A DNA stretch of 62,435 nucleotides, counting the filler, from Globobulimina sp. (taxonomy: Eukaryota): NCBI GenBank assembly GCA_003354225.1. It is 11 parts of 11 records of this genome, joined end to end, with 100 filler letters (N's around TTAATTAATTAA, not from the genome) between each part and the next. Parts side by side here need not be neighbours in the genome. Positions count along the whole stretch, not along the records: positions 56,863 to 62,435 come from PIVH01000506.1; 10 more parts are not named here. The stretch is one strand, 5' to 3'. Shown here one piece after another: positions 7,325 through 62,435 of the stretch (its first letter is position 1; each line of letters opens with the position of its first letter). The notes under the pieces are model-generated. The model searched no databases, had not been told where the DNA came from, and saw nothing but the letters and a program-made list of their open reading frames with translations. The position numbers and the translations under genes are program-made.

Positions 7325-8238
7325 TTAAAATGGTATCATTGGTTCAATCGGCCATACATGTTCTGATTCTAATTTCACATTAATTGGGCTAAAAAAATAA
7401 TCTGTAAATTGTTTTAAATCAAATAACAATTTACTTTCCATAAAAAATTCAATTTTATCTGGAGTTGGGAATCTATTCATTATTTCTCTTTGCGAGGATT
7501 TGAATAATTTCATCGCTGCGTCTTTATCTTGTTTCATACATAATTGCCTTCCAATCTTTTCATATAAAATATACATTTTGTTGTGTGCTCGAAAGAAATA
7601 TCAAGAAAAAAAGAAAATTACATATACCAAACTTCAATCATTCCTTTCATTGTCTCAAATAATACACTTTGTAGTGCCTCCCCATCTTCTTCTACCTGAT
7701 CGTCTTCCTCTTCGTTTGCATCCTTATTTTCTTTATTTTTCTCAGCGTCATCGTTGTTAGCACCGCCAGGCAAATTAACTTCTCTTACACTCCATATCGG
7801 AAATTCTCTCGTTATTTCCTCTGAAACACAACAAATTTTAACATTTAAATTTAATAATTCTGGATTGGTTTTGTTTTTATTATTATTGGATGGATCAATA
7901 TGTTGAAAGAAATTATTAGTTTCATCATACATCATTTCTTCAAATAATGGATGCAAAGATTCCAAAGACTGAATTTCTATCATGTGGTAAAATAAATTAT
8001 TAATGAACAATAATGCTCCAGTTATTTCTTGCACAGATTTTTGTGACTCAATGAATTTGGAATGAATATTTTCAATGATACGTTTTTGTTTTGATGTCAT
8101 ATGACCAATATACAACACTCGCGTACAGCGTAACTCTTCATTCACATCATATGATGTTCTTAAAGTGTCTAATAAAGATTCCCTATACGATTCAATTGGT
8201 TCCGTCTCTGCTTCCTCATTGTTTGGTGAGTGTTTCAT
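7325..8238 (-). CDS. TEX47: TEX47-like (BLUF-like) protein
   Basis: ITGALLF...HMIE, EEITREFPIW and the C-terminal PINVKLESEHVWP match the TEX47 pattern. Intron 7632-7556 joins two ORFs in frame. Confidence 0.65.
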
Positions 8239-8281
8239 TTTGAGTAAAGAAAAAAACTTCAAAAATCTTACTCTGTGTACC

Positions 8282-9259
8282 ATGTCAATTATAGCGTCAT
8301 CGGCAGTAAGCGGCTACAACCGACACAACCGAGACAATAAAAATAAGAAACAAAACCCACATGGAGTGAATCATGGATTTTTCTTTGCTTCCCGGCGTGG
8401 TCAACACATATTAAAAAACCCGGGAATTATCCGTGATATGATAGAAAAATCAGGAATAAAAGAAACCGATATTGTGTTAGAGATTGGTTCCGGAACTGGT
8501 AATTTAACCATGCAATTATTACAAAAATGCAAAACAGTAATTGTGGTCGAAATCGATGTTCGAATGATCAGTGAATTACGAAAACGTGTTTTAAATACGG
8601 AATTTGAACGAAAATTGCAAATAATCCATGGCGATGCCATTAAAATTAAACAGTATCCATTTTTTAATTTATGCATTGCCAATATCCCCTATCAGATATC
8701 CTCGCCATTAATATTTAAATTATTATCGCATCGCCCCTTATTTCGTTGTTGTATATTGATGGTTCAGGATGAATTTGCGAGGCGCTGTGTGTCCCGCGTT
8801 GGCGATTATTTTTGGAGTCGATTGTCGATAAATTGTCAGTTATTATCACGGGTGTCGTATTTAAAAAAAGTAAGCAGACTCAATTTTAGGCCACCACCAA
8901 AAGTGGAATCTGCATTGATTCGAATTGAACCCAGAATGCCTGTGCCCAAAATTAATTTCATTGAATGGGATGGTTTGATCAGGATTTGTTTTCAAAGGAG
9001 ACATCGGATGATACGGAAAATATTTCATAATAAAAATGTGATCAAACAATTACATAAAAATTATATAATATTTAACCAAATGAAAAAAAAACAGAAGCAG
9101 GAAAATGATGATGAGGATAATATTGAAAAAACCAAAAAAATGATACTTGATGTGATTCAGAAGTCTGGCTTAGCTGAGAAACGATCGAGACATTTGGATG
9201 TGACCGACTTCTTGAGATTATTAAAGTTGTTTAATGATAAAGGAATACATTTGAAGTAG
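8282..9259 (+). CDS. DIM1: 18S rRNA dimethyladenosine transferase
   Basis: GQHILKNPGI, VLEIGSGTGNLT, ANIPYQISSP, FRPPPKVES, FIEWDGLIRICF. Confidence 0.95.
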   Translation: MSIIASSAVSGYNRHNRDNKNKKQNPHGVNHGFFFASRRGQHILKNPGIIRDMIEKSGIKETDIVLEIGSGTGNLTMQLLQKCKTVIVVEIDVRMISELRKRVLNTEFERKLQIIHGDAIKIKQYPFFNLCIANIPYQISSPLIFKLLSHRPLFRCCILMVQDEFARRCVSRVGDYFWSRLSINCQLLSRVSYLKKVSRLNFRPPPKVESALIRIEPRMPVPKINFIEWDGLIRICFQRRHRMIRKIFHNKNVIKQLHKNYIIFNQMKKKQKQENDDEDNIEKTKKMILDVIQKSGLAEKRSRHLDVTDFLRLLKLFNDKGIHLK

Positions 9260-17793: not shown

Positions 17794-20700
17794 ATGGCAT
17801 CCTTATCTTGTGGTTTCGCTATGCAGCCTAAAACAGTATATGCCGGTGTTTTAAATAAAAAAGGCCAAGTCAACAAATCGTGGAAGAAAAGATGGTTCGT
17901 ATTGTATGAAAACCGAAAATTAGCGTATTACGCATCGCAAAATGATGTCGTAAATTGCAAAGATCCAATAAACTCCATCGACCTATCCACCATAAACCAA
18001 GTCCGTATAGTGAATAAACCATCGTATAAAAAGCCCAAAAGACGCAAAACATTTTCCATCGCTTCAATGAGCTCAAAACAGCACAGCATTTCGACCCTAT
18101 TCACCCACTTAACTGCGTATACAACAAACCACAAAATAAAAAATGCCATCACGTCCCTAAACGACTGTAATTATAACACGCAGTTTTCATTTGAATTAGT
18201 TTCACCAAAACGAACGTACACTTTATGCTGTCACCACGCCGCGTCCTTCAACGAATGGGTCGACAATTTGGAATCGGCCGTATTTGGACAGAAATTGTAC
18301 AAAGGATGGATACGGAAACAAGGCGAAAAAAGAAAGACATGGAAGAGACGCTGGTTTATCATCTTCAACACCAACGAAATGAGATATTATTTGGACGACA
18401 AATTATCCAAACCCAAAGGCTCCATTTTGTTGACCGATTTGTTGAATATGCGCTTAATTGACGACGGCATCAAGTACAGTCAACCAAATATCTTAGAATT
18501 GCAAACAGCGCATCGGCTATGGGTCTTATCTGCGGATAGCAAACAAAACCGACTGTTGTGGTGGCAGCGCATCAGCCGTTTGATGAACGGCATCAATTTG
18601 GCGCCCATTTACGAGGATCACTTATTTAAATATGACTTGCAAGCAAAGTGTTGGATTTATAAATACTTCGCATTGGACACCAAAGCTTTGTTGCAGTTCG
18701 ACAAAATTGAGGATTGTGAGCGGTATAAAAATTCTACACATTTCACGCTGGATTTGTATCGGAATCACACCGCAAAATATGTGCAATCCACGATTGCTTT
18801 GAACAAACATCCGGTGATTAAGCGTTTGCATAATCAAAATATGGACGATTGTGATTTTAAGCAGTTTCAGAAAAACAATTTATTCAAAATCGAAACCAAT
18901 GCCGGTTCATATTATTTTGCTGCCGACCATGCCGTGCAAATTGAACGTTGGTTTGCAGCGTTTAAACAGTTAAAAAAACAGAGAGCGGACAGGAAAAAGC
19001 AGCAAAAATTCCAGCTGTTGAGGTGTCAAACTTATTCATTCACGCATCCGCTGCACAGAAATAATTATAACATATTGACTGACCACAAGGATGACAATGA
19101 CATCGCGCCGCGTTTGCATTATAAATCAAAGACAGTGGGCCATTTCGACGACATTCAATACCAATCGTTTGCCGCTGAGATAACTGAGATTGCCGCGGTC
19201 GCACAACATCGCAATATCCGACACCGAAGATACAACTCACAGTCACAAACCAGTAAGAAACTGAAACAAACCCAACACCAAAAACGTTATAGCCACAACA
19301 ATATCGGCTTAGAATTAGATATCTCGCAATTTACAAGAAACAAATTCAACCACAATGGACATTACTTATCCTGCGACACCAAAATACGTAGACGCAAAAC
19401 CACATTGCCTCGCACCCAGACACGGCGCACTTTGCTCGCAAAACGACCGAATATGAGCATTGTCTCCGCATTGATGGCGCTTGGCTTCCTCTCCGAGAAT
19501 GGCTGCAAACGCGCCGCCTTGACTGTGAATAACGCCTCGGCCGAGCTGGCAGCAAATTGGTTGTTTGATAATATGGAGAATCCCGCCGTGCATTTACCGT
19601 TAATATATTCAGACAGCGACGACGATATCGAGTACGATAATGAGTATATATTCTCAGATGGGGAGGTTGCGACTGATCAGGGCATGGATAGGAGATTAAG
19701 TGGTGTTGATTTGAAGGGAATTGAGGATATTCCAGAGTTTGGGCTGAAAGCTGACACGTATTACAAATATAGCTTGTGGGAGAGGGCGAAAATAAATTAT
19801 ACGAAGGCGATAAAGAAGGCGCTGCGACACGAAGATAACTTAATTTATAAAGAATGCAAAGATCGGGAACATGTGGATAAGATTTATAAATGGTATTGTT
19901 ATCGATCGGAGTGTTGCAGACATTTGAAGCAATATCCACAGGCGGTCAGCGATACAAATGCATGGATGGAGAGGGTGTGTACATTTGTTTGTATATACAG
20001 TGTATTTGCTGTATTTCATATGTTTGAAAATTCAAAAAGGTGTTATTTAATGATGATAGCTTTGATTTTATTGAAGGCTGCGAGATTGCATCGGGGATAT
20101 GGATGGATTTGAGGCGGTTCAATGCGTCGAAGGTGTTTATTGAGAAAGGGTTACAGATCGATGGCAGGAATATGTTATTACAGCAACGGCTGCAGAGAGT
20201 GGCTAGGAAAATTAAGCAAGAATTGGCAAAGTTGGCGGTGGAGATTGACATGAAACAGTTGGAGTTGACAGTGGACATTGAGGAGAAATGTGAGAGTGGT
20301 GCCAGTGATGTGGAGTGGGAGGATATTATTGGTGGATGGTTGGAGCTCATTGGTGGCAAAACAGCGCAGCAATTATTTACACAGTCAGCGGATACTGATA
20401 TTGTTTGGGCGGAGAAGCACGATATTTCTATGAATGAATGTGTGCAGCGATTGGTGTTTGTAATGAGAGTGTATGGGACGTGGAGCACCAAAGTGACGCA
20501 GACCGATGCCACAGAGTTCATGTCTATGTACGATATATTGTCAATGTTGAATGAGTACTCAGTGCCGCAATTAATTAATGATTACCTTCATGTTAAAGAG
20601 GTGTATATTGACATTGCTATTGATGGGGAACAGCATAAACAAAGGGAGATTATATGGAAATATTTGCAATTTAAAATTGGCGATTGCTTTGATACAAAAA

Positions 20701-28459: not shown

Positions 28460-29250
28460 AATTCAATTCAATCGTTTATTCAGGCATTTGGTACAATGCA
28501 TGGAACTAGATACATTATACATAAGAGTGGTGCAGTATGTGTGTATGTTTAGTGTAGAACTAGGTAGGAGTGGGAATGTCGAGGAACATCGAGGATCTTA
28601 CTTAGAAAAGAAACATCAGTGTATCTGATGGTAGAACTGTGCGAAGCCTTCATGAATAAATTTGGCAGTCTTTAACATAAGAGCACTGCTTTTAGAATTA
28701 AGCAACGATTCAAACTTATACATGTTCGGTCTTCTGTGATAATATTTAGGAATACATTTTTCTCGCAATGTTTGTAAAGCTGTACACTCAAGAAGAAAAT
28801 GGAACTCATCTCCTAATTTGTTTTCATTACACAGGTCACAATGACGAGTATGCCTTGGCAAATTAGTGTACCTACCCCTTTCTACGGGGAGTCTGTGATT
28901 GATCGTACGAAACTTACAGAGTGCTCGCCTGTATTTACATGGCAATTTTAACAAGTACGGCTCCAACTCGAGGTCAGTTTTAAACACCCGATAGTTGGTA
29001 CATTTACTTGTGTTATATACCGTACTTCTCCATTTCTGTATGAATTGGTCCTTAAGTTTCAGCCCAATTGACTGTTTTATCCATGCCTGAGCCTCAAAAT
29101 CTTGATAATTCCATATGTTACTCATCCCAACGTCATCAAAGATACTCCGTCACGTGCATGACCCATGGTAAATCAGATGGCATCATGAGTTTGTAACATA
29201 GACAACTATATTTATCCTGCTTACCATGTACCAGTCGCAGAAGAAATGCT
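28460..29250 (-). mobile_element. 5'-truncated non-LTR retrotransposon (LINE) 3' end
   Basis: KFRTINHRLPVERGRY...CDLC...DEFHFLLEC, typical of a LINE ORF2 C-terminus. 1-nt frameshift near 29150. AATAAA followed by a (TTGAA)n tail at the contig edge. Confidence 0.85.
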
Positions 29251-30702
29251 ATCATTCTTTGCTGTATAATTGCATAGACCTCATTGTTTAAAAAGCGTAT
29301 GGTCCCAGTTATAGTGCCATTGTCCGCGATAATGTTATGAGCTTCACCCACATCGCAGGTACCAATGGTAACGACACCCGATTGACAGGCAGATAAATTG
29401 CGTGATATAATGCTATGCAATGCAATATTCAATAAAGTGACAGCTAACACTGTGTCCGATGTATTTAATGGTTCTGCGCCATGTCCACCAATGCCATGCA
29501 CCACAATCTTAAAAGACTGCGCCCCGGCCATTAACGAGCCCGCTTTCAATATAATTTTGCCCAATTTGCAATAGGACCATACATGCAATCCATAGATCTC
29601 ATCAATGGACGGACAATTTAATTCTTTATCCGCCTGCAACACATTACTGTCATTAATCATATATTTTGCACCAGCACCACCTTCCTCACCCGGCTGGAAT
29701 ATAAATTTAATAATACCGTTGATGCGCTTTACATATTTTGGCTGTGATAGTATGCGTGCTACGGTGAGCAAGATGGCCATATGGCAATCATGTCCGCAGG
29801 CATGCATCACCCCCTTCTTCTGCGATTTATAGGCAATATTTATATTTTCTTCCTGGATGGGCAATGCGTCCATGTCGGCGCGCAAAGCAATGCATTTCGA
29901 TTTGGTATCGTTCGATATATTGCCACCATGTAACACCCCGACTACGCCGGTTTTACTTTTATCGCCAACGCCCGATTTGGTGGCCAACCCTAACGACTCG
30001 CAATAGTTTAGAATGTTTTTACTTGTTTCGTGTTCTTCAAATGATAATTCTGGATTTGCATGAAAATATCTTCGCAATTTAATTAAGTCGTTCTTTGTAT
30101 TGAATACATCTATTAATTATATTTATATTTATATTTATGGGATGGACAAATGTCAAATGACGCAAAAACGCAATACCTTGCGTGATGTTTATGGGATATG
30201 ACGTATGAAAATATTCCTCAATCTTTTGTTGAACATTCATTGGAGGTTTCTCGATCTCATAGTTACTTACAATAATCTCTTCTTCCTTCATTACTTCCTT
30301 TATCTCTTCTTTTATCACTTCCTTTGCCTCTTCTTTTATCTCTTCTTGTTTTGCTATTTCATGATCTGATGTGGTGGCAATTGCTTCAATTTTTGATTCA
30401 ATTTCCAATGTATCGGGTGGTAACGTGTCGGTTTGTGGTGTATTTGATTGTGATGCATTCGATTCGGATGCAGTAGATTGTGGTGCATTAGATTGTGCAG
30501 TGTTCGATGGCTCTGTTTGTGGTTGTTTTGATTCTATTGTTTCTTTGTTTTGTGGTGAACCATGGATATTAATTGGACCATTCGCTATATTTTGTTGTGT
30601 TGTGTCTTGTTTTGCGTCTTCACTGTCTTGTGGTATTGACGCTGTCTGTGACTGTGGGATTAACGGTTCTTGTTGTTGATGAGTTGACGCTTCGCTGCCC
30701 AT
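29251..30702 (-). pseudogene. M20D amidohydrolase with acidic N-terminal extension, truncated by the LINE
   Basis: HANPELSFEE, ALRADMDALP, MHACGHDCH, FQPGEEG, GGHGA. Intron 30176-30110 joins the MGSEAS exon in frame. C-terminal third replaced by LINE sequence. Confidence 0.8.
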
Positions 30703-30907
30703 TCTTAAACACACACAAAACTAGAGCTTTTTATAATTTTTATATAATACTAACTGCAACAAAGTTTATAGTTGTGATAGCGCTGAATCCATCAATCCAA
30801 GATAACGTTTAGTTATCTTGCTGAATCAGTTTAAATTAAGGATAAAAATTTGTGTTGAGAAGTGCAACAATGTAATAGTGTAAGTGTAACAGTGTAATAG
30901 TAACCCT

Positions 30908-31925
30908 TTAACTAATACGACGTCTTTGAGCATTTTGGCTTTGTTTATCACTAAATCCGTTTATTCCGTTATTATTATCATGCATTTCCCGAAAGGAACG
31001 CTTTCGTTTATTTTTTAAACATATATGCTCATTTAACTCCTTGTCAGTTTCAAATACTTTATAACAATCAACACATTCATTTACAGTTTCTTTGGCCATC
31101 GGTGTTGATGTTTCCTTTGCATTAAATCTATTTAAATTTGGTAATGTTAATACTCCATCGTCTGTAGTCTCTGTATGGTTCGACTTTGACCGATATCTCC
31201 ATTTAATAGCTACTTTATTTAAATCATTGTGTTTTTTTAAATCATCCATTATTTGTTGATATTCTTTTTTTTCATTCTCTCCTTTTTTTTGCCATTTTAT
31301 TTTATCAGATTTATTTAATGAATTCCATGATTTTGTATTTAATTTTGTTATTTGTTTTGAATTCAAATTATTTAATGAGGGACTCTTTTTTTTTAATTGC
31401 TGATTTTTGAATATATTATACAACATCCACGCTGTTTGCGGTCTGCGTATTTTATTTTCAATTCTTTCTTCATTAAATTCAATTGCATCATTATTTTCAT
31501 GGTCGTTTGCATCCAAAAAGCCATTGTCTGGATTAGTTGATTTACATTCTTTGCTTGTCCCAGTTTTTCGAAAGTGATTATATTGATTACATGAACAAGA
31601 ATGACTGCATCGATGGCGATAATTTTGCGTGCTACTTTTCTTACATTTTATTATTTCTTTCTTATTTCTTTCATTTGTACAACAATGAAAACATATAAAT
31701 GACTGTTATTTATAATGAACAATACTGTTAAAGGTCAATGCACGATACACAACACAGAATACATACACATCGCTGTATTGCCTTTTTGCCTTTTTTTGTT
31801 ATTTTAGTCTGAGATTGAACCCAAAATGAGACTAATACATCCATTTGTACTTGAAACCCAATGCTCTTTAAAAATCGTTGAAATCTGTCCAATTGAGACT
31901 GTATGTAGTGACCCACCTGGCTCAT
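30908..31925 (-). CDS. HMG-box protein with C2H2-like zinc finger (spliced; start inferred)
   Basis: RRPQTAWMLY...WNSLNKSDKIKW (HMG box) and CVDC...LNEH. The frame extends to an AG acceptor near 31703. Confidence 0.65.
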
Positions 31926-32377
31926 ACTGAGATTCACAGAGTACAAAAGTAGACAAAAAGTATGATGCTAGGGCAAACACTTTGCGAATTTGCGTCCAAA
32001 ATTTCAAAATCTTTTTGTGATGATTTTCACAAATCAAAAATATGTTATCCTTGCGCTTGTTTATGATATTTTTTTCAATAACTGAACTTTTTCAATAAAA
32101 AAAGTGATCTATTTATTCAGAAAAAAAATACAAATTGTTGAAAAGTTCACGTGCTTTATTAAAAACAGCTCAAATAAATCTTCGACTGTTTGTGATTATA
32201 ATTTTTATCCAACATCATCCTTCGACAAAAAGATTTATTTAAGCTTTTTTATAAATTTAAACGATATATTTCAAAAGATAACCTCCCCCCTGGTTCAGTT
32301 ATATTTTTGCTGTTTTCTAACGGAAAAAACTGATAAAGAAAGATTTTCACTGGAGCTGTTGCGACTGTGTTTCCACC

Positions 32378-34044
32378 ATGGAAGAGAGATTGAAAGTGGT
32401 TGGTACAGCCTACAGGAATTGTTTTGGTATATTACCAACATCTATTCGGGATAAAATAATCTCATCAGCAACTTCAACCTCATTGTCAGGTTCAATTGTA
32501 GTTAAATTAAAATGGTCATCACCCGTTGAGAAAATATCATTTATTGGTTGTCGTGGTGATAAAACATGTGAAGAGGGATATATTCAAATTCCAATTAATT
32601 TATTGCAATGTATTAATTTATCTGAAAATATACTCGTCACTGTCACTTTTGTATCAGCCACAACATCATATTCGACAACGCAATTATACGAAACCATATC
32701 TTTGAAACCTTCCAGTTACGAGGACTGGGAAATAATACAATATAATTCGCAATACGTTGCAGATAACCTATTGAGGCAAATAGATATCATCAATGACAAG
32801 GATAGCTTTCCAATTTACATCGGCGATATTAAAGTTCATTTACAATCAAATATGAACTTTCGATGGGGGTTCCTCAAATTAGGAAATGACACCACCATCG
32901 ATATTATGCCACTAAAACGGTCGGCCAAAAAAAATAAAAAAATAACAACAAACGTTTTTGATGATAGTGATGATATTAATAGTGTTCAATCAAAAGATGG
33001 TATGACTTGTTTTTTTAATTTATTAATATTTTATTTTGCTTTTGCTTTTGCTTTATGATGACACAGCAGATGATGCAGAGGACAAAGAACAGGAAATAGA
33101 ACACGAATTGTGTCGTATTTTTAGGATTGGATCATTCAATAAATATGTCAATGATATCTTGCCAATACCACCAAATAATGTTGTCATAGCACCCAATGAT
33201 GAATTCTATGATGGCGATAATGTCATTGTCACATTTCGTAATAATAAATCACCAGAAACACCAGAATCCAAAGAAGCGCAAGAATCGCAGGGATATACTC
33301 GAATTTTGATGAGATTGATAAGTTGTGATTATATTGAAAATAATGAGATTGTGCTGCTATCACAATATGATATTAATTGTTATGGGATATCAACTGGCGA
33401 TTTTTGTGTGATTGAATCAATGAAATTAAATGAAAATTATAAACATATTTCACTAGTTTCGCCCTTAAACGAGTTAGAATTTATTACAATACATTTACAA
33501 CAAATATTAATTGTTTCATCAAACATAATCACTTCTGCTTCAGCCTCGAATCAGTTCAATGAATTTAACAATTTATATTTAGATAATACATTTAAACTGA
33601 ATTTAATTCAATATTTAAAACAAAATAAATATAATGATAATATATGCAATAACTCCATTATAACTTATAATGATTTATATTTTCATGTTAATTTAACAAC
33701 AAATGGATCCCAACTTAAATTACAATTGGATGATAATGAAATATTATACTTGATTGCTGTGGAGAATATAAGTGATAATTATATAAATATAATGGATAAC
33801 ATCAAACATTTTGCAATAATAAATCATAATTTATTACCCCCCGTCGATAACGAATTAATACAACTGATCAGTTCACATATTATGAATTGCAATGACAATA
33901 ATCATGTAATAATGTATGGCAATGATGCACGGATTCGACTGCAATATGTGGATGAAATAATGAATAAAGTCAATGCAAATTGCAATTATCCGATTTCATT
34001 TATTAAGATTGATTGTAATTTATATATAAATTCGCGAATTGCAG
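32378..34044 (+). CDS. PEX1: Peroxin-1 AAA ATPase, N-terminal part
   Basis: LKPSSYEDWEIIQYN...NLLRQI matches the PEX1-N domain; intron starting near 33000; truncated at the contig end. Confidence 0.7.
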
Positions 34045-35255: not shown

Positions 35256-35561
35256 TGAATTATATTATTTGTATGAATATTCACTAATATTTAGTTATCA
35301 TTTTTTAATATTTGAATTACATTCGTATTATCTATTAATGTACAGATTATTTTAAAGAATTATATATAAATATTAATATCTATTCAATTTTAATAAATTT
35401 TGTTAATTTTCCAACATTTTTCCAACATTTAAATTCTGTTTATTTAAATTTAAATTTTTTAAACTTTTTATTGATGTAATTTATTATTATTTAATTTACA
35501 TTTGTTTGTTGTAAACATTATACCTTTAACCATTAATATCTTTTGTTCACACTTTGTCCAG

Positions 35562-37366
35562 TAATCGACCCCGAGATCTCTAAAAAAGTAAAAAATTTAC
35601 AAACATTACACGCCGAAGGTTATAAAAACAAACATCATTTCAATATAAATGCTTTTAGAAAATATTTAAAAAGTAAACAAAATGGAAAATTAGAAATCCA
35701 TTTTATTGAAAATGGGTTTCCTTTATGGAAATCCTTTCATAACAAAGGCTGGGAACCTTCAAATCTTTCAACTAAAATTAATAACTTAGTGTGCTCAAAA
35801 AGTGATATTATTGCGTTTATTGACAAATTATCTGAGGAGTGTCAACAAGGACAAATTGAGCCTATTAATTACGATCCAAAATATGTTTTAATGATATTTG
35901 GAACGCCAAAAAAAGATAAATTTGGTTTGTATACTAAAACGAGAGTCATTCGTAACGGCTCATTCCACGCAAAAGGAAAAACAGCAATAAATCAATGGAT
36001 TCGCAAAGAAAAATGTAATATGCGAAACCTCCCTAATTTGAAAACGTATACAAAATTACTAATAAACAATGAATATATGTCCTTAAGAGACTTAGCTGAT
36101 TTTTTCAGACAATTAAAATTGCCCGAAAGTGACGCAGATTTTGTTGGTTACTCCATTTTTGGCCTCCGGTTTAGGGATCGGAGCCAACCATATGGCGTTT
36201 CTTCAGCACCCGGCAATTCTCAGTATTTCTCAATCATTTTAGTATGGATCCTTAATAATTGTATATTAAATAATAAACAGCAACATTTAATTAATTCAGT
36301 CCTCGTTCATATCGATGACTTTGTGATTGCAGCTAAAACAAAATCTGATTGCAATCTATTAACAAATCTGTTTGATAATTTATTACGCGAATTGAAAGTA
36401 AAAGTATCGGAGCATAAATCTGTAAACAATGTAAGAAAAGGCATAATTTATGGCATTTATTGGAATTTAGCAAATAAAACATTAAAAATACCTGATTTGG
36501 CTTTAAAACAATTAAAATATTTCATATCATTAGTCATAAAATATAGAATCGCCACCGGCAGAGCCTTAGAATCGTTAACTGGCAAAATAATGCATTGGAG
36601 CCAGTTAAACAAAGCCACAAAAGCCTTAGCATATAGATCGTTGGCCTATATTCATAAAAATATTCGAAATGGCAGAATATCAAAATCAGAATGCATAATT
36701 TTACCAATTTCAGTGATTAATGACTTGCGTTTCTGGTTAAAATGGATTGATAATATTAAAATTGTGTCAATGTATACAATTTTAAACAATCCGTCAATTA
36801 ATGTATTTGCAGCAACTGACGCCTGCGAAATTGGTGCAGGATATGTTATGAATTCCATATTTGCAAAATATAAATTCAATAAAAATGATTTAAATTTATC
36901 TATAAATCAAAAGGAAGCACATTGTGTCCTTACACTTATTGAGACACATAAACACTTTTTAACTGGCAAATCATTAAAATTGTATATCGATAATGCATCC
37001 TGTTATTATTCAATGGTTAGGAAATGGTCTTCGTCCTATAATATGATGATATTTGTGTATGAATTATGTTTATTGATGATAAAATATAAAATTTATGTTC
37101 ATTTTGTATGGCTACCATCGGCTTTTAATTTCTTACCAGATCGTCTATCACGCGCTAAAATGTCTGAATTTTATGAATTGTGTAATACTTTCAATTTAAA
37201 ATTAGCCGAAATTAAACCAGATTATTTTGGTAGATATCAATTTGCAAATAACCCATTAATGAATTATGAAAACGATATGAATGAATATGTAAAGTTCATT
37301 GAATGGTTAAAACAACCCTTAAATATCAGAGCAATATCACCTTATAAATGTTATATGAAAATATAA
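35562..37366 (+). CDS. Reverse transcriptase-RNase H of DIRS type
   Basis: DLADFFRQL, QPYGVSSAP, HIDDF; RNase H motifs ATDAC, INQKE, IDN, N..PDRLSR. Confidence 0.92.
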
Positions 37367-56177: not shown

Positions 56178-56862
56178 ATTACTTAGCAACTTGAAAAAGT
56201 TTACATTTCCAACTTTTCAAAGTTCAAATATTAACTTTTCAAAGTTTACAAAATATAAAGTTTACAAAATATTTGCTATTATATATTGAAAATTGAATTT
56301 ATCAATTCTCACCGCCCCGATTTCAAAATTTTTTTCAAATCTAAGTTTATGAAAATAATATGAAATATTTGTAACATTGCACATGACATTTACATGGCCA
56401 AATTTGAATACAACGATAATCTATGCATTCTCATGATTTTTTGCACAAAAATATGTTAAATTAAAACACAAAGTCAAAGTAACAATTTTAAATGGTGTGG
56501 AAGAGTTTTTGCAAGTGATGGTTGTACGGATTTAGTGGTTTTAAGTGTGTGAATAATATGAGACAGCTGCATGCAATCTATTGCAGACCGTTCCAGTTGA
56601 TATTCTCGCATTTTTTCCATATGCTGACTGATTTGTTTCTTTTTTTATCCCAAAAAACGCCTATAAAAAACTTTTATTTGACTACTATAAAAGTCACTTT
56701 ATTGCAAAAATACCTAATAAAATAGAAACGTTTTCTATTTTATTGCATAAATACCAAATAAANNNNNNNNNNNNNNNNNNNNNNNNNNNNNNNNNNNNNN
56801 NNNNNNTTAATTAATTAANNNNNNNNNNNNNNNNNNNNNNNNNNNNNNNNNNNNNNNNNNNN

Positions 56863-58016
56863 CCACGTCCATCAATATGAAATGCATACTGCTCAAGAGT
56901 GTGGCGCCGCTTGAATATAATTTTTTTAATACCTGGAATTTTAATTAAGGTGTTCTCGAGTTTCGCAGATAATAAACCGATCGCTCGATTGCTCAATCCA
57001 GTTCTATTTCCGTTTCGTGAAATGTGCTCCAATAATGTCATTTCTTCTTCAATCATATTTTGGGGGCTATTGAAAATGTGTCTCACTTTGTTTTTGTTTA
57101 CGGAAACAACATTAGCAATTTCATCAGTTCCGTTTGCAACATTATATCGTGGCCTAATTGTGTTAATATCCGTATTATGAGTTCTGTTTACAGCGGCTGA
57201 TTGTGCGCTAATTTGTGCCATAATTTGCTGCATATCAGCGATATCACTGGCGCTGAGGCCAGTTGGTGCCTGAGGTCGTGCTGGCCCAGTGGGTGCTACA
57301 ACTCCAGATGGGATTTGGACTTCTTCTAACGAAGCTTGTGCCCGTTCATCAGATTTATTTTGTAAGATACTCATGATTGCGCTTTTATTTGCGTTAAATA
57401 TTTTCTCGATTTGTGATTTATCTACTTTAAATACTTTAGATGAGTTGAAAGTCCATAATTTACGGGTATTTCGGCCTTCATTAACAGATTTAGTTGTTTC
57501 TTTAATGATGAAGCTCGAAGCTCGATGCGCAACAGGTCCCTTGAATACTTTTTCGACAATATAATTTCGCGTCTGTTTAGATATAAATAATGGAAAATCA
57601 ACACTAATTTTGTAAAATTCGGTTCGGGTTGAACCAACATACCCGAATGATGGGTGGTCTAATAAACCTTTGATTGAGTTTTTATCCATACAGTAAATAA
57701 ACTTACCCTTATGAATGATTCTAATAATATCTTTTGATGGAATATCTTTTGTATCTTCCATTGAGATATAATCGCGAGGGTTACTACATTCTTTATTATG
57801 AACAGATGGTGCGGCAACAGGTTTTGGTGTTTTCTTTTTTGCCGGTCTTGCAACAACTGCCGCAGTGACTCCTTTATATTTAGCCCAACGTTTTGTGCCA
57901 TTTTTATTGGTCTTAACAATATATTGACCTCCATCTCCACCAGTTCTAATAGTTCCTACACCATAATCTGTTGCTGATTCAGTTGGCGATTTTCTTGCTT
58001 TTCTTGCTTTTGGCAT
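56863..58016 (-). CDS. Hypothetical protein with a giant-virus-type N-terminal motif (truncated)
   Basis: RKSPTESATDYGVGTIRTGGDGGQYIVKTNKNGTKRW. Confidence 0.7.
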
Positions 58017-58295
58017 TTTTATATGTGTTATATACTTACAAATATAAAATAATTTTTATAAATTATCTATAATAGTATGTACCATCTTTTTTGCTTTCAC
58101 ATTTCAAACATATTGTGCGATTTATATTTCCATATATCTGTCTGCAACATCTACATCGGTGTCGTTTCGGGGTTTTTGGATTTTGTTTGAAATACTTAAT
58201 AATTTTTGAGAGCATTTTTAATATAAGTTATATAGGAACAAAAACTTATTTGATTTATTCCGTATTAAAATTTATATATTATATTATTATAGACT

Positions 58296-58592
58296 ATGAA
58301 TACATTAAACTTTTTACCAAAAGATATTGAGAATATAATTATTGATTATAAAAAACAGATGGAATATAAATTACAATTCGATAAAGTATTGAGTGATATT
58401 AAACATCTTAGATATATACGTGAATTTGAATATATCCGTAATAATGAAGATATTTGGGATGAAACTAATGTATATTATCATGAATATAATTGTTTTATAT
58501 CACGTAATCGTTGCAAAAAGATTATTATTGCTGAGCGAATTGGTGGTTATGTAATTGAGGAATTGTCACCAAACGAGATGTTTTTCTGCTAA
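58296..58592 (+). CDS. Small protein with an F-box-like N-terminus
   Basis: LPKDIENIIIDY. Confidence 0.6.
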   Translation: MNTLNFLPKDIENIIIDYKKQMEYKLQFDKVLSDIKHLRYIREFEYIRNNEDIWDETNVYYHEYNCFISRNRCKKIIIAERIGGYVIEELSPNEMFFC

Positions 58593-58603
58593 TTAAATCT
58601 AAA

Positions 58604-58636
58604 TTATAAGAAGATATTATTAATATCTTGTTATAA
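58604..58636. terminator. AT-rich palindrome between convergent genes (hairpin-type 3'-end signal)
   Basis: ttataagaagatatta-t-taatatcttgttataa, ~15-bp stem with one mismatch. Confidence 0.6.
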
Positions 58637-58653
58637 GCTATAAATTGTGTAAT

Positions 58654-59904
58654 TTATTCAATATTCATAATCCATTTTGTAAATTTGAAATCATCACATA
58701 ATTCGACGTTATTATCTTTAATTTCATTTAATAATTGGTCTAATGTTTGATATTCATTTTGCATATTTAATAAATATTCAACTTCAGCTTTATTTGCAAT
58801 TAATGGACAATTAACTTTATGTTCAAATGCATTTTCTAAGATTTTTTGGACTTTTTTGTAATGAGTTTCATAAATATGAAACGAATCAGCTTGGTGTGTA
58901 TAAACTCCAAGTTTAAGTTCTGGATATGCAGTATCTCTTAAATATACATAAACCATTTCTTGAAATATTGTGAATATGCTTACATCACACGCAGAAAATC
59001 CGAATAATGCATCATTAGAACGCATAGAAGCTGTCATATTTAATTTATTATTTCTGATATTAAATGATAATGCTTTTGTGCAACAATAATCTTGTGTTTC
59101 TGTATTTAAATTATCATTTGAGCCAATATAGATAATGGCTCTTCGCGAAAACATATCATTTTGCAATGTTTCGCATAATCTCATGAAATTTGGGATAACA
59201 TATTTTCCGTAATTTGAATTAATTGTGTTATCGGCATTTTTAATACGCTTCCATAATGATGCGTGATTTTCAATTGTGCAATCATATTTATTTTCTGGAT
59301 TTCCACCAAGTAAATACCATAAAAATTCTTTTTTGCAGTAATTAAGATTATTTTGTGGTTTTTTAGTTGGGTTTCTTCCTTCAAATACAAACCATCTATC
59401 AGTCGGGTCATCTAATACAACTTGATAATTTAATAATTCTTTTGTTTTTAATCCTCTTACGGTGACTTCAGGTGCATTCCATACATCTTTAAATGCTTTG
59501 AATTTTGGGTTTGAATCGATTTTTCTCGTAATTGGTTTCTTTTGCTCGTAATCGTTTAATGCAATTAAATATGCAACTTCATCTAAATAATTGTCGCCTT
59601 TATAAGAATATGAACTTCTTACTCTCTTTAAATTACACATAACTAAGAAACAATCCTCTGGAGTCACTTGGGTTTTTGTTCGACTCATTAATTTAGTTAA
59701 TTCTGCAATTTTTTCGAAGCTCTCCCCGATTGGTCCATATTTTCTATCACCTTCTTGTGTTCTATTATGAATAATATTATCGGCAATTACTCCAATTCGA
59801 GACATTTGGGTTTTATTTTCAATATTAGACATTGATAATGATTCGTTGTCATAAGTAAATGTAGTCATTTTAGTTGTCATGGTGTTTGTTTGTTGTTGAG
59901 TCAT
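58654..59904 (-). CDS. DUF6378-like domain fused to a dCMP hydroxymethylase-like (thymidylate synthase superfamily) domain
   Basis: N-term: R..GDRKYG...SFEKIA...M..LK.VR....K.DNYLD..AY. C-term: EFLWY, INSNYG, SRRA, DYCCT, MRSNDALFGFSACD, SFHIYETH. Confidence 0.85.
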   Translation of the reverse strand: MTQQQTNTMTTKMTTFTYDNESLSMSNIENKTQMSRIGVIADNIIHNRTQEGDRKYGPIGESFEKIAELTKLMSRTKTQVTPEDCFLVMCNLKRVRSSYSYKGDNYLDEVAYLIALNDYEQKKPITRKIDSNPKFKAFKDVWNAPEVTVRGLKTKELLNYQVVLDDPTDRWFVFEGRNPTKKPQNNLNYCKKEFLWYLLGGNPENKYDCTIENHASLWKRIKNADNTINSNYGKYVIPNFMRLCETLQNDMFSRRAIIYIGSNDNLNTETQDYCCTKALSFNIRNNKLNMTASMRSNDALFGFSACDVSIFTIFQEMVYVYLRDTAYPELKLGVYTHQADSFHIYETHYKKVQKILENAFEHKVNCPLIANKAEVEYLLNMQNEYQTLDQLLNEIKDNNVELCDDFKFTKWIMNIE

Positions 59905-59921
59905 TCTGTTATATTATAATA

Positions 59922-59938
59922 TACTATTTAAATTTTAA
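59922..59938 (-). promoter_or_regulatory. 17-bp upstream motif TTAAAATTTAAATAGTA (identical copy at 61751-61767, + strand)
   Basis: Exact match upstream of the two nucleotide-metabolism genes. Confidence 0.6.
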
Positions 59939-60015
59939 ATATATTTAGCAATTTAAATAGAAAAAACCTTATATTGACTCGTTTAATATTATAATTTTTT
60001 TTGATATGCATAAAT

Positions 60016-60369
60016 CTATTTGCGATAATTAAAGTAGTATATTAAAAATGCTATAATCGAGATGCGCATGTTAGTTTCATTATCATCATATTCTTCATCA
60101 CCCATAATTGTATTGAGATAATCAATTATATCACCTTTTGATACATATTCTTCTTCCTCATCATCGGTAAATATGATATCAATAGTCTTACCTACATCTT
60201 CTTTATATATTCTTTTTTTATCGCAATCGCAAACCTTACAACAACTTTGGGTATTTTTTAATGTCAATTCCTGGATTGAATATTTCTTATAAAAATCCGA
60301 AATGCTCATTATTTTTGAACACGTTGTACATGTTTTTTCAATTGTTGATTTTATTGATATGGCAGACAT
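60016..60369 (-). CDS. Small zinc-ribbon protein
   Basis: CTTC...DFY...CKVC. Confidence 0.6.
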   Translation of the reverse strand: MSAISIKSTIEKTCTTCSKIMSISDFYKKYSIQELTLKNTQSCCKVCDCDKKRIYKEDVGKTIDIIFTDDEEEEYVSKGDIIDYLNTIMGDEEYDDNETNMRISIIAFLIYYFNYRK

Positions 60370-60473
60370 TATTTTATATTATATATCAATAAATTAATCA
60401 CCGGATTATTGATATGTAATCAATAAAATTGACTTAATTAGCATTTTATATATATTATCATGAATATATCCAA

Positions 60474-60710
60474 TTAATCTTCACCATATATCTCAAAGAT
60501 TTCTCCATTAATTATTCGTGATATGCCATCATCCTCAGTAATTATTTCTATTTCCATTTCTTCTTCTATTTCTTCCTCGCATAATTCTTTGTATTCTCTA
60601 TATAAATCATCATATATTTCTTCTTCCGTATCATAATCTATATCATAATCCTCATCATAATCCTCATATATTTCTTCTATTTCTTCTTCTTCCGAATAAT
60701 AATAATTCAT
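60474..60710 (-). CDS. Highly acidic small protein
   Basis: E/D/Y-rich 78-aa ORF with the shared upstream motif. Confidence 0.55.
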   Translation of the reverse strand: MNYYYSEEEEIEEIYEDYDEDYDIDYDTEEEIYDDLYREYKELCEEEIEEEMEIEIITEDDGISRIINGEIFEIYGED

Positions 60711-60782
60711 GAGTGATATTGTTTTATATTATATATAATCATAAAAAATACTTTCATGGTTTCAAAACGAAATTATATTGAC

Positions 60783-61067
60783 TCATTGCTGATACGAATA
60801 TTTATTTAAAATATGTTGTATTTTATGTTTTTCAAGTCGTACTTCAATCCCATGATATCTGGCAGTTTCAGCATTTATTGCTTTATCAAGAATATTTCGA
60901 CGGGTGATAATTGTTGCTCTTACATCCGCAACGCTCATTAGATCGCGTAATTCTCGAAATAGTGGCGACTGTTTTGCATTAAAAAACGCTAAATCATTTT
61001 GCCTTTTCACTAAATCTAATCTGCTTCTTTCTAATTCTCTCTCTAATTTGGATAACTGTTGCGGCAT
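60783..61067 (-). CDS. Small coiled-coil protein
   Basis: 94-aa ORF with the shared upstream motif. Confidence 0.55.
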   Translation of the reverse strand: MPQQLSKLERELERSRLDLVKRQNDLAFFNAKQSPLFRELRDLMSVADVRATIITRRNILDKAINAETARYHGIEVRLEKHKIQHILNKYSYQQ

Positions 61068-61232
61068 TTGTGTTATATTATACTATACTATATTATTTCA
61101 TGCAATTATTTAATATTTAGTATCGTATATCAGCTTAATATCATTATAGATAATTTAATACGCAATACAAGTCAATTTAAAAAATTAATCACAATTATTT
61201 CAAAATTTATTTATTTATATATTATATAAAAG

Positions 61233-61676
61233 ATGGATCACTGTAATATTTGCGACAAAGATATTAAAAACTTAAACTCTCACAATAAATCTCAAAGACA
61301 TTTAAAATGGTGTCGAATACATGGTGATGCTAATAATTATAATTTAAGGAATAATGTCATAATTCCAAAATTATTTAGTGATATTAAAAAAATTGATAAT
61401 GATGTTAAAGAGTTTTTAATTGATAAAATTAAAGAAAAATATTTAATTAATATTATAGAAAGTTTTATTCCACCATTTGAGGTTGAAAAATATTCAAAAG
61501 TTCAAGGCTACAAACTAACACAAGTTTGTTGGTTCGTGGGCATATACCAATCTGGTGGTAAGCAAAATGTTATTGAACGATTAATGAAAAACAAAATATA
61601 TTTAAGTAAAGAGCAAATAGATTATTTATTTCATTTAAGATATGATACAAAAGCGAAATGTTTAAAAATGTATTAA
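61233..61676 (+). CDS. Zinc-finger plus SAP-like domain protein
   Basis: CNIC...H..SQRH; LTQVCWFVGIYQSGGKQNVIERL. Confidence 0.6.
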   Translation: MDHCNICDKDIKNLNSHNKSQRHLKWCRIHGDANNYNLRNNVIIPKLFSDIKKIDNDVKEFLIDKIKEKYLINIIESFIPPFEVEKYSKVQGYKLTQVCWFVGIYQSGGKQNVIERLMKNKIYLSKEQIDYLFHLRYDTKAKCLKMY

Positions 61677-61792
61677 ATGATATAGAAATGATACATAAAT
61701 ATAAAATATAATTGTATTAAGTCAATTATATTTTTTAATCGAAAACAATGTTAAAATTTAAATAGTAGATAATAATATATATAGAAATAACA

Positions 61793-62435
61793 ATGAAAAT
61801 CGTAATCTGGGACACGGAAACAAATGGTTTACCAAAAAAGAATCCAATCAACAAACAAAATGACTTCAGCGAAGTATATATGATTCAAATATCAATTGTA
61901 ATATATGATACCAAAGCTGAAAAAAATATTGTAGAGAGAGAATGGATTATTAAAGGTGATTTCGTTATTGAACCAATCATCACTGAAATTACCGGTATCA
62001 CAAAACAAATGACCGAAGAAAACGGTCAATCATTCATGCGTGTTTGGCGAAGTATCAACAATTTTATTGCAAAATATGATTGTAAATATTGCGTTGCCCA
62101 TAATGCAGAATTTGATATGGGTGTAATTAATCAAGAATATATGAGAATGAAACGAATCAAACAAGATTTTCCACAAACCCCATGGCCAATCATTAATGCA
62201 CTAAAAAAACAAGGTGTATTAAATGAAAGTATTATTATGCGGTTTAGATATAATAAAAAACTGTTAACAAAATTATTTATGCATTATAAAAAGAACAAAA
62301 CATATAAATCTAAAGATGTATTTGCAATATATCATAAATATTTATCATCAGATAAATCATTATATAAAGAACCATTTTTCAGAATGTTTCCAATTGATTC
62401 CATGAATGATATATTCAAAAGATTTAATTGGCGAA
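61793..62435 (+). CDS. DEDD 3'-5' exonuclease (DnaQ-like), truncated; absent from the ORF track
   Basis: MKIVIWDTETNGLP, EITGIT, VAHNAEFD. Confidence 0.88.
   Translation, partial: MKIVIWDTETNGLPKKNPINKQNDFSEVYMIQISIVIYDTKAEKNIVEREWIIKGDFVIEPIITEITGITKQMTEENGQSFMRVWRSINNFIAKYDCKYCVAHNAEFDMGVINQEYMRMKRIKQDFPQTPWPIINALKKQGVLNESIIMRFRYNKKLLTKLFMHYKKNKTYKSKDVFAIYHKYLSSDKSLYKEPFFRMFPIDSMNDIFKRFNWR

Follow-up and report, generated by a model that had tools for sequence, protein, structure and literature searches.

What kind of enzyme is encoded by a gene in which the phage domain DUF6378 is joined to a thymidylate synthase (TS)-like domain, and whose DNA is it when such a gene appears in a eukaryotic assembly? 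The gene in question lies in a stretch of 62,435 nucleotides (the window) from Globobulimina sp. (GCA_003354225.1), on the part that comes from PIVH01000506.1. An initial annotation had described it as a giant-virus enzyme like deoxycytidine monophosphate (dCMP) hydroxymethylase, fused to a DUF6378-like domain, and as a candidate one-gene system for cytosine modification. The open reading frame (ORF) was recovered at exactly the coordinates annotated, on the minus strand, and the motifs quoted for it, EFLWY, INSNYG, DYCCT and MRSNDALFGFSACD, were found in its translation (4/4). The reading that we favour, with moderate confidence, is that the C-terminal domain makes 5-hydroxymethyl-dCMP from dCMP in the manner of T4 gp42, that DUF6378 is accessory to it, and that the contig is a eukaryote-associated virus-like element carrying a phage-derived module. 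The parts of the gene on which this reading draws are as follows (pLDDT, predicted local distance difference test):

58654-59904, minus strand: the whole ORF, 416 amino acids (aa) plus stop with an ATG start, comprising a DUF6378 domain and a thymidylate-synthase-fold domain (translation, Pfam)
59806-59904, minus strand: Thr/Gln/Asn-rich leader, residues 1-33, present in none of the other fused proteins; pLDDT <50 for residues 1-31
59530-59805, minus strand: DUF6378 domain, approximately residues 34-125, a helical bundle in the model
58657-59499, minus strand: TS-superfamily domain, residues 136-416, predicted dCMP 5-hydroxymethylase
59080-59082, minus strand: codon of Cys275, the predicted catalytic nucleophile (E. 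coli C146, T4 C148), invariant in 201/201 aligned sequences
59089-59091, minus strand: codon of Asp272, at the E. coli L143 position, where an acidic residue goes with a hydroxymethyl product
59011-59019, minus strand: Ser296-Asn297-Asp298, of which Ser is the deoxyribose determinant (S167) and Asp corresponds to D169
58984-58986, minus strand: codon of Asp307, at the E. coli N177 / T4 D179 position, where Asp selects cytosine

The fold of the C-terminal domain was examined by both sequence and structure. Pfam family PF00303 (Thymidylat_synt) matched residues 186-363 (E 4.8e-12; 46 bits, cut-off 24.3), and residues 141-391 matched four PHROG families named 'thymidylate synthase', the best at 5.8e-28. 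The NCBIfam ThyA equivalogs all scored far under their cut-offs (best 43.2 bits vs 327). Among solved structures compared by sequence, the cytidine monophosphate (CMP) hydroxymethylase MilA (1.7e-10) and T4 dCMP hydroxymethylase (3.5e-10) were followed at a distance by ThyA entries (0.027-0.3). An AlphaFold (AF2) model built from 41 sequences had a mean pLDDT of 80.8, with ten-residue blocks of the TS domain averaging 74-98 and mostly exceeding 90; when it was searched with Foldseek, MilA (1.2e-14) and T4 dCMP hydroxymethylase (5.9e-11) again ranked first. The sequence and fold rankings, together with the low ThyA scores, bear out the initial annotation in placing this domain nearer to T4 gp42 than to ThyA.

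The window protein was aligned with T4 gp42 and E. coli ThyA, and 201 family sequences were then aligned to a family hidden Markov model (HMM); these comprised 161 locus ORFs (the window protein, T4 gp42 and E. coli ThyA included) and 40 database proteins. At the E. coli positions R126, L143, S167, D169 and N177 the window protein reads R-D-S-D-D, identical to T4 gp42, compared to R-L-S-D-N in E. coli ThyA, and this signature was found in 198 of the 201 sequences. Arg254 occupies the R126 position; Asp298, at the D169 position, is kept as Asp in 201/201 sequences, and Glu193, at the position of the catalytic Glu (E. coli E58, T4 E60), is Glu in 199/201. Asp307 falls in the alignment column of T4 D179 and E. 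coli N177, in agreement with the annotated claim of an Asp at the specificity position favouring dCMP. According to Lee et al. 2026 (PMC13326640), Asp at N177 denotes a dCMP substrate, an acidic residue at L143 accompanies a hydroxymethyl and not a methyl product, and Asn at D169 marks flavin-dependent 5-hydroxy-dCMP synthases; deoxyribose is associated with Ser167 and Arg126, and ribose with Ala and Lys (Zhao et al. 2016, PMC5175136). The R-D-S-D-D signature therefore predicts a dCMP substrate, a deoxy sugar and a hydroxymethyl product, and it speaks against ThyA, a 5-hydroxy-dCMP synthase and a MilA-type CMP enzyme.

The scheme proposed from these residues is that of a folate-dependent pyrimidine C5-transferase of TS fold (residues 136-416), which would convert dCMP to 5-hydroxymethyl-dCMP. 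Cys275 would attack C6 of the base, Asp307 would read N3/N4 of the cytosine, and methylene-tetrahydrofolate would donate the carbon; where ThyA has a Leu that keeps water out, Asp272 would then allow water to hydrate the exocyclic methylene, while Ser296 and Arg254 would restrict the enzyme to 2'-deoxy substrates. Modified DNA would further require a deoxynucleoside monophosphate (dNMP) kinase and removal of dCTP. The module itself would have been taken from phages by a eukaryote-associated element.

With T4 gp42 (PDB 1B5D, 1B49, 6A9A) the window protein shares the TS fold, the INSNYG and MRSND blocks and, at the diagnostic positions 58, 126, 143, 146, 167, 169 and 177 (E. coli numbering), the residues E,R,D,C,S,D,D. 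The two differ in that their identity is only ~24%, that the window protein alone has a TS-like C-terminal subdomain (CP.I...EV, F.FT.W) and an N-terminal DUF6378, and that no gp56, gp1 or glucosyltransferase gene was seen beside the window gene. The best named relative was gp36 of phage Xp15, with 38.8% identity by tblastn, the first rank by fold in BFVD (E 1.4e-21) and the same ERDCSDD residues. Unlike the window gene it is a standalone gene of a tailed phage, and is accompanied by a dCMP deaminase (adjoining) and a Nol-like carbamoyltransferase (two genes away; locus L193, record 30076-33499), neither of which is present on the window contig. A BFVD entry from Fadolivirus, 'thymidylate synthase/dCMP hydroxymethylase', showed 21% identity, and its name is generic.

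Relatives of the whole protein were collected from several sources, and the loci gathered were given L-numbers (L001-L005 for the nearest standalone relatives, L083-L087 for fused genes). A word-index search returned 46 relatives, three of which likewise combine the two domains (50-52% identity), the others being mostly standalone proteins of 254-290 aa. Matches to the protein were present in 1294 phage GenBank records (best: Ralstonia phage RsoM2USA, 37.8%, and Xanthomonas phage Xp15, 38.8%), and at least 561 relatives were found in IMG/VR; a single-protein IMG/VR scan with the whole 416-aa protein found no relative. A PHROG scan of 50 neighbour ORFs of L001-L005 identified beta-glucosyltransferases (2), thymidylate kinases (2), nucleotide-sugar epimerases (3) and a Nol-like carbamoyltransferase (1), as well as phage DNA polymerases and other glycosyltransferases. 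Neighbours of the glucosyltransferase and carbamoyltransferase types thus fit a hydroxymethyl acceptor in the family. As to the dNMP kinase and glycosyltransferase partners that the initial annotation had proposed to look for, none is on the 5.6-kb contig, but thymidylate kinase and glucosyltransferase do occur near the standalone relatives. Yang et al. 2021 (PMC8670742) name TS, with Asp at 177, as the domain most associated with cytosine-modified contigs, and describe a TS-carbamoyltransferase pairing that makes 5-carbamoyloxymethylcytosine from 5-hydroxymethylcytosine (5hmC). Given the gp36 signature, the nearby Nol-like carbamoyltransferase and the dCMP deaminase, the DNA of Xp15 may carry 5-carbamoyloxymethylcytosine; no paper testing Xp15 DNA for this base was found in the literature.

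How the fusion relates to these enzymes was addressed by a FastTree phylogeny of 183 distinct sequences over 256 columns, rooted on E. coli ThyA, from which identical rows and rows with >40% gaps had been dropped. Eight fused proteins formed an exclusive clade (support 0.999) within a 54-member clade (0.961) of standalone enzymes, and T4 gp42 nested inside the wider family; since ThyA is the sole outgroup, the tree alone is no test of ThyA membership. The fused form was found in neither of two IMG/VR scans. The enzyme kind and the DUF6378 domain are already known; what is new here is the fusion, restricted to one small clade in AT-rich contigs whose appearance is not phage-like, and a sharp genomic context for DUF6378. 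A further 80 loci (L090 duplicates L056) came from a metagenome scan for which one pattern each of DUF6378 and TS served as seeds, and over the 163 sources the two genes were arranged as follows:

Fused: 6 sources (the window and L083-L087)
Both genes separate on the same strand: 75 sources, with a gap of <=10 nt in 23/75 and both gene orders represented
One gene alone: TS only in 80 sources, DUF6378 only in 2

Three loci, L030, L056 and L059, have DUF6378 on its own in an ORF of ~90 aa immediately next to the TS-like gene, which may precede or follow it.

The N-terminal domain was confirmed as a helical DUF6378, as initially annotated, by a match to PF19905 above the gathering score and by a helical-bundle model. 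The match spans residues 51-113 (E 1.4e-7; 32.1 bits, cut-off 27.1; 35.6 bits for the excised domain), and residues 19-125 also match two PHROG families labelled 'phosphofructokinase'. The model, computed from a 69-sequence alignment, has a pLDDT of 88.4 and consists of four long helices and one short one; R48, E51, R54, Y56, G57, K93, R96, D104, D108 and Y112 are nearly invariant in the family. A four-sequence profile retrieved 2344 cluster representatives at E <= 0.001 among 1.84 billion, and a word-index search for short DUF6378 relatives returned none. Among the best 150 representatives 57 were standalone, 47 had an N-terminal extension of >=40 aa, 45 a C-terminal one and 1 both. Pfam analysis of ten of the longer proteins showed two fusions to dUTPase and one each to uracil-DNA glycosylase (UDG), PRA-PH, TS and helix-turn-helix domains; custom HMMs applied to the 150 representatives detected TS in 2, dUTPase in 2 and a MazG-like domain in 3. 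Standalone phage proteins share the domain and its position beside a thymidylate-synthase-type gene, but are separate proteins of ~90-115 aa: in F. prausnitzii phage vB_Fpr_FP01, for example, the DUF6378 protein, ORF61, lies beside ThyX (PMC13432834). In the accessible parts of the literature that mentions DUF6378, no tested function was found. Across its fusions and neighbours the domain thus appears, whatever the origin of the window contig, in a sharp and testable context: it travels with Asp-type TS genes and is fused to TS, dUTPase, UDG and MazG-like domains. The term 'nucleotide-modification-associated domains' reportedly goes back to Iyer et al. in 2013, and DUF6378 may be linked to DUF1599.

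The question of whose DNA carries the gene has to be answered from a short sequence. Eleven contigs, each 5573-5594 bp long and ordered from longest to shortest, make up the window and are linked by spacers of the form N44-TTAATTAATTAA-N44, so that runs of N recur every ~5.7 kb; since these are joined contigs and not one molecule, the usable gene context is 5.6 kb only. ORFs that cross spacers, such as that at 56811-58016, were rejected as artefacts of contig joining. The relevant features of the gene-bearing contig, and the eukaryote-type ORFs on the others, are:

56863-62435, no strand: gene-bearing contig, 5573 bp, 28% GC, nine ORFs, both ends cut within ORFs
58604-58636, no strand: AT-rich inverted repeat with 16-nt arms, 94% complementary and 1 nt apart, between the convergent 3' ends of a 98-aa ORF and the fusion ORF
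59905-59925, minus strand: AT-rich box of the TATAATATAA type, immediately before the fusion ATG
59973-59979, minus strand: AGTCAAT motif, 69-75 nt upstream of the fusion ATG
60428-60434 and 60777-60783, minus strand; 61170-61176 and 61720-61726, plus strand: further copies of AGTCAAT
1779-2558, 8165-9259, 17794-20112, 29136-30077 and 35543-37366: eukaryote-type ORFs on the other contigs

On the other contigs are genes for a VPS13_N protein, a Dim1-like rRNA adenine dimethylase, a PH+UBA protein, an M20 peptidase and a retroelement reverse transcriptase/RNase H; the assembly is therefore largely eukaryotic. The AGTCAAT motif occurs five times on the gene-bearing contig, compared to 0-2 times on each of the ten others. 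All five copies lie in or at the edge of intergenic DNA (755 nt), are oriented with the downstream gene and precede its ATG by 57-77 nt; the extended form of the motif is RAGTCAATWT. The TATAATATAA-type boxes also stand directly before the ATGs of other ORFs of the contig (4 copies vs 0-1 on other contigs). From their position and repetition these elements look promoter-like, and we know of no described promoter that matches RAGTCAATWT or the TATAATATAA-type boxes. The motif AAAATTGA, reportedly of the Mimivirus type, was not enriched (18 matches vs 19.6 expected). The inverted repeat may form a hairpin at the 3' ends.

The neighbouring genes, and those of the fused relatives, provide further information. 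PHROG families were lacking for 6/8 contig neighbours, and tblastn of two neighbours against 50,697 phage records gave no match in 2/2. For the exonuclease encoded on the contig, the two nearest Atlas clusters were Nucleocytoviricota (score 0.92), which is taken as a lead only. Of the closest fused relatives with genomic context, L084 has genes for an ATPase of the Pox_A32 type (6.9e-9), a superfamily 1 (SF1) helicase and a DUF5754 protein, and L085 has a gene for a DUF5906 helicase-like protein and a weak integrase match; DUF5754 also appears in a gene list for a giant algal virus. The coordinates of these genes are:

L084:424-1215, the Pox_A32-type ATPase
L084:8407-8676, the DUF5754 protein
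L085:3022-4683, the DUF5906 protein

The L084 ATPase had no phage match, and neither it nor the contig exonuclease had a close relative in IMG/VR. A 682-aa protein of L084 was considered as a capsid protein and dropped, no PDB, PHROG or phage match having been found for it. The block of methyltransferase, dUTPase and fusion is shared with phage loci, and the module therefore looks like phage-derived cargo in a different type of element. Taken together, the contig probably, though by no means securely, derives from a DNA virus or virus-like element associated with a eukaryote.

Several other explanations of what the polypeptide does were weighed against the favoured one. A different C5 product formed from dCMP, either 5-methyl-dCMP, which the phage Xp12 enzyme makes, or 5-hydroxy-dCMP as in RB69 and DLP3, is improbable. 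The TS fold and Asp at N177 are common to all of these enzymes, the signature rules are correlative, and the flavin-dependent dCMP hydroxylases 9iqc and 9iqu were matched (E 1.1e-5 by sequence; fold ranks 34 and 36); the 5-hydroxy-dCMP synthases RB69 gp48, DLP3 gp80 and HY126 AfhB (9IQC, 9IQU) share with the window protein the fold, the dCMP substrate predicted for it, Asp177 and an acidic residue at 143. However, they use flavin and O2 and every one tested has Asn at D169, where the window protein has Asp298; Asp272 stands at L143, where methyl-forming enzymes have a bulky hydrophobic residue; the MilA and T4 matches are five orders of magnitude better than that of 9iqc; and the glucosyltransferase and carbamoyltransferase neighbours of the relatives need a CH2OH acceptor. 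Still more improbable, to the point where we give it very little weight, is a canonical thymidylate synthase that makes dTMP from dUMP, or a CMP hydroxymethylase that, like MilA, serves a nucleoside antibiotic. It is true that the best PHROG and NCBIfam families are named 'thymidylate synthase' and that MilA (mildiomycin biosynthesis; PDB 5JNH, 5B6D) is the top structural match, aligned over ~300 columns by fold and likewise with Asp at 143 and 177; but ThyA is opposed by equivalog scores far under the cut-off and by Asp for Asn at 177 and for Leu at 143, and MilA by Ser296 and Arg254, as in deoxy-specific enzymes, where MilA has the Ala176 and Lys133 that allow ribose. In Zhao et al. 2016, a MilA A176S/K133R double mutant had lost all CMP activity (PMC5175136). 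A scenario with a bearing on the N-terminal domain is the one put forward in the initial annotation, a two-step polypeptide: DUF6378, as a divergent pyrophosphatase of the all-alpha (MazG-like) class acting on dCTP/dUTP, would feed dCMP directly to the fused hydroxymethylase, and the roles of gp56 and gp42 would be combined. We regard it as unlikely. In its favour are the genomic linkage to nucleotide-pool enzymes, the conserved acidic and basic residues (E51, D104, D108, R48, R54, K93, R96), and a fold search of 48,161 chains with a 102-residue DUF6378 model (peak Z 5.8), in which six MazG-like all-alpha nucleoside triphosphate (NTP) pyrophosphatases appeared in the top 50 (2p06_B, Z 5.5; 7ody_A, 4.6; 1vmg_A, 2yxh_B and 4qgp_B, 4.5 each; 6j22_A, 4.3), spanning approximately the first 90 residues. 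These values (Z 4.3-5.5) tie with those of unrelated helical chains and lie under the tool's stated noise level for helical bundles. Foldseek of the DUF6378 model against the PDB gave no match at E <= 0.001, and a profile search of PDB sequences nothing real; hhalign probabilities for the DUF6378 profile were 0.26% against T4 gp56 and 0.10% against a 20-sequence alignment of MazG-like proteins from the same loci; and Pfam matched DUF6378 in all 69 members examined, with MazG or PRA-PH in 0/69 even at E 1. Separate enzymes are moreover at hand, since 80 loci with a TS gene include a genuine MazG-like gene in 45 and a dUTPase in 24, the fused loci with enough flank (L084-L087) have a dUTPase-family gene directly beside the fusion in 4/4, and in L084 a MazG-like ORF begins downstream of the fusion (judged by eye from the sequence); fusions of DUF6378 to MazG-like or dUTPase domains would, on the pyrophosphatase explanation, be redundant. 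Because of the profile, Pfam and Foldseek negatives and the separate MazG-like and dUTPase genes, DUF6378 is read as an accessory module and not as a dCTPase, and we infer that it acts as a nucleotide-binding or tethering subunit for pyrimidine-nucleotide enzymes. Neither a pyrophosphohydrolase nor a one-gene system is thus upheld: the relatives, fused ones included, keep adjoining dUTPase-family and MazG-like genes, and no dNMP kinase was seen. A more ambitious version of the favoured reading can also be entertained, in which a eukaryotic virus or polinton-like element adopted the phage module for pre-replicative replacement of C by 5hmC, with DUF6378 as a common subunit by which enzymes of pyrimidine nucleotides (TS-like, ThyX, dUTPase, MazG, UDG) are linked among themselves or with the replisome; we hold this only tentatively and think it rather unlikely in full.

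The remaining explanation concerns origin, and is that the contig comes from a bacteriophage of a eukaryote-associated bacterium, the gene being an ordinary phage hydroxymethylcytosine (hmC) gene in fused form. This is a possibility to be taken seriously, even if we consider it doubtful. The TS family and DUF6378 are overwhelmingly phage-borne, as the number of matching phage records attests, and a phage large terminase is present in 14 related loci; the neighbours without PHROG families, the tblastn negatives, the lack of the fused form in IMG/VR scans, the Pox_A32, DUF5754 and DUF5906 genes of L084 and L085 with an ATPase unmatched in phages, the AT-rich box before each gene with its common motif, and the eukaryotic proteins of the other contigs all speak against it. 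A number of observations weigh against the reading that we favour and should be set beside these. The nearest standalone relatives look phage-like; the contig exonuclease also matches phrog_192 (1.7e-21); phage loci have counterparts, at ~40-50% identity, of the dUTPase and methyltransferase that adjoin the fusion in L084 and L085; and none of the nine ORFs on the 5.6-kb contig had a Pfam match to a eukaryotic-virus hallmark gene (major capsid protein, A32 ATPase, PolB, VLTF3 and others). The capsid family PF04451 of nucleocytoplasmic large DNA viruses (NCLDV) was not found in nine long IMG/VR records of relatives, a search in which the positive control was also silent. Shine-Dalgarno sequences were detected at 0/7 genes of the window contig, 0/32 genes of fused loci and 7/255 genes of terminase-bearing phage loci of the family; as the latter are thus without them too, their absence was dropped as an argument on origin. 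With regard to function, the assignment of 5-hydroxymethyl-dCMP as the likely product draws on signature residues that are correlative, the six pyrophosphatases among the top fold matches leave a catalytic role for DUF6378 possible, and no dNMP kinase, dCTPase, dUTPase, MazG or glycosyltransferase gene is present on the gene-bearing 5.6-kb contig to serve incorporation into DNA. The link between DUF6378 and TS is itself qualified, as the metagenome scan that supplied most loci with both was biased towards DUF6378 by its seed, and in the TS-seeded IMG/VR set DUF6378 lay within the flanks in only 3/80 loci. Of the eukaryotic giant virus named in the initial annotation, the association with eukaryotes and the virus-like nature are retained as the favoured origin; a giant virus in particular is at most a possibility, no hallmark gene being present on 5.6 kb.

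Pre-replicative base replacement is well studied in phages. In agreement with the initial statement that no giant-virus case had been characterised, the literature search found no paper on dCMP hydroxymethylase in giant viruses, nor one pairing 'dCMP hydroxymethylase' with 'giant virus'; the giant-virus epigenome papers checked dealt with methyltransferase-type marks only, 5hmC being merely a base-call class or a general mention. If the contig and its fused relatives do belong to eukaryotic viruses, hmC-substituted genomes would have their first candidates in that group, which would bear on the evasion of host nucleases by such viruses and on the behaviour of their DNA in sequencing and modification calling.

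Some further observations were made on the contig and on the loci gathered. The largest neighbour of the fusion is a partial ORF of 384 aa (56863-58016, minus strand) with a basic N-terminus, for which no Pfam or PHROG family, no Atlas match and no homologue among 5.8 billion proteins were found. In the very AT-rich fused loci L086 (351-1892) and L087 (562-2269), with 21% GC, near-identical stretches of 30-40 nt lie upstream of consecutive genes, and a promoter for each gene is therefore suggested. In the phage-like loci L088-L162, DUF6378 and the Asp-type TS are accompanied by an S-adenosylmethionine (SAM) methyltransferase (19 loci), a weakly PALP-like protein of 300 aa (20), two unknown proteins of ~300 aa (21 and 22) and a PDDEXK protein (16). 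Examples of these accompanying genes are found at:

L099:1442-3240
L102:550-1491
L089:1530-2294

It is possible that they encode further enzymes of cytosine hypermodification.

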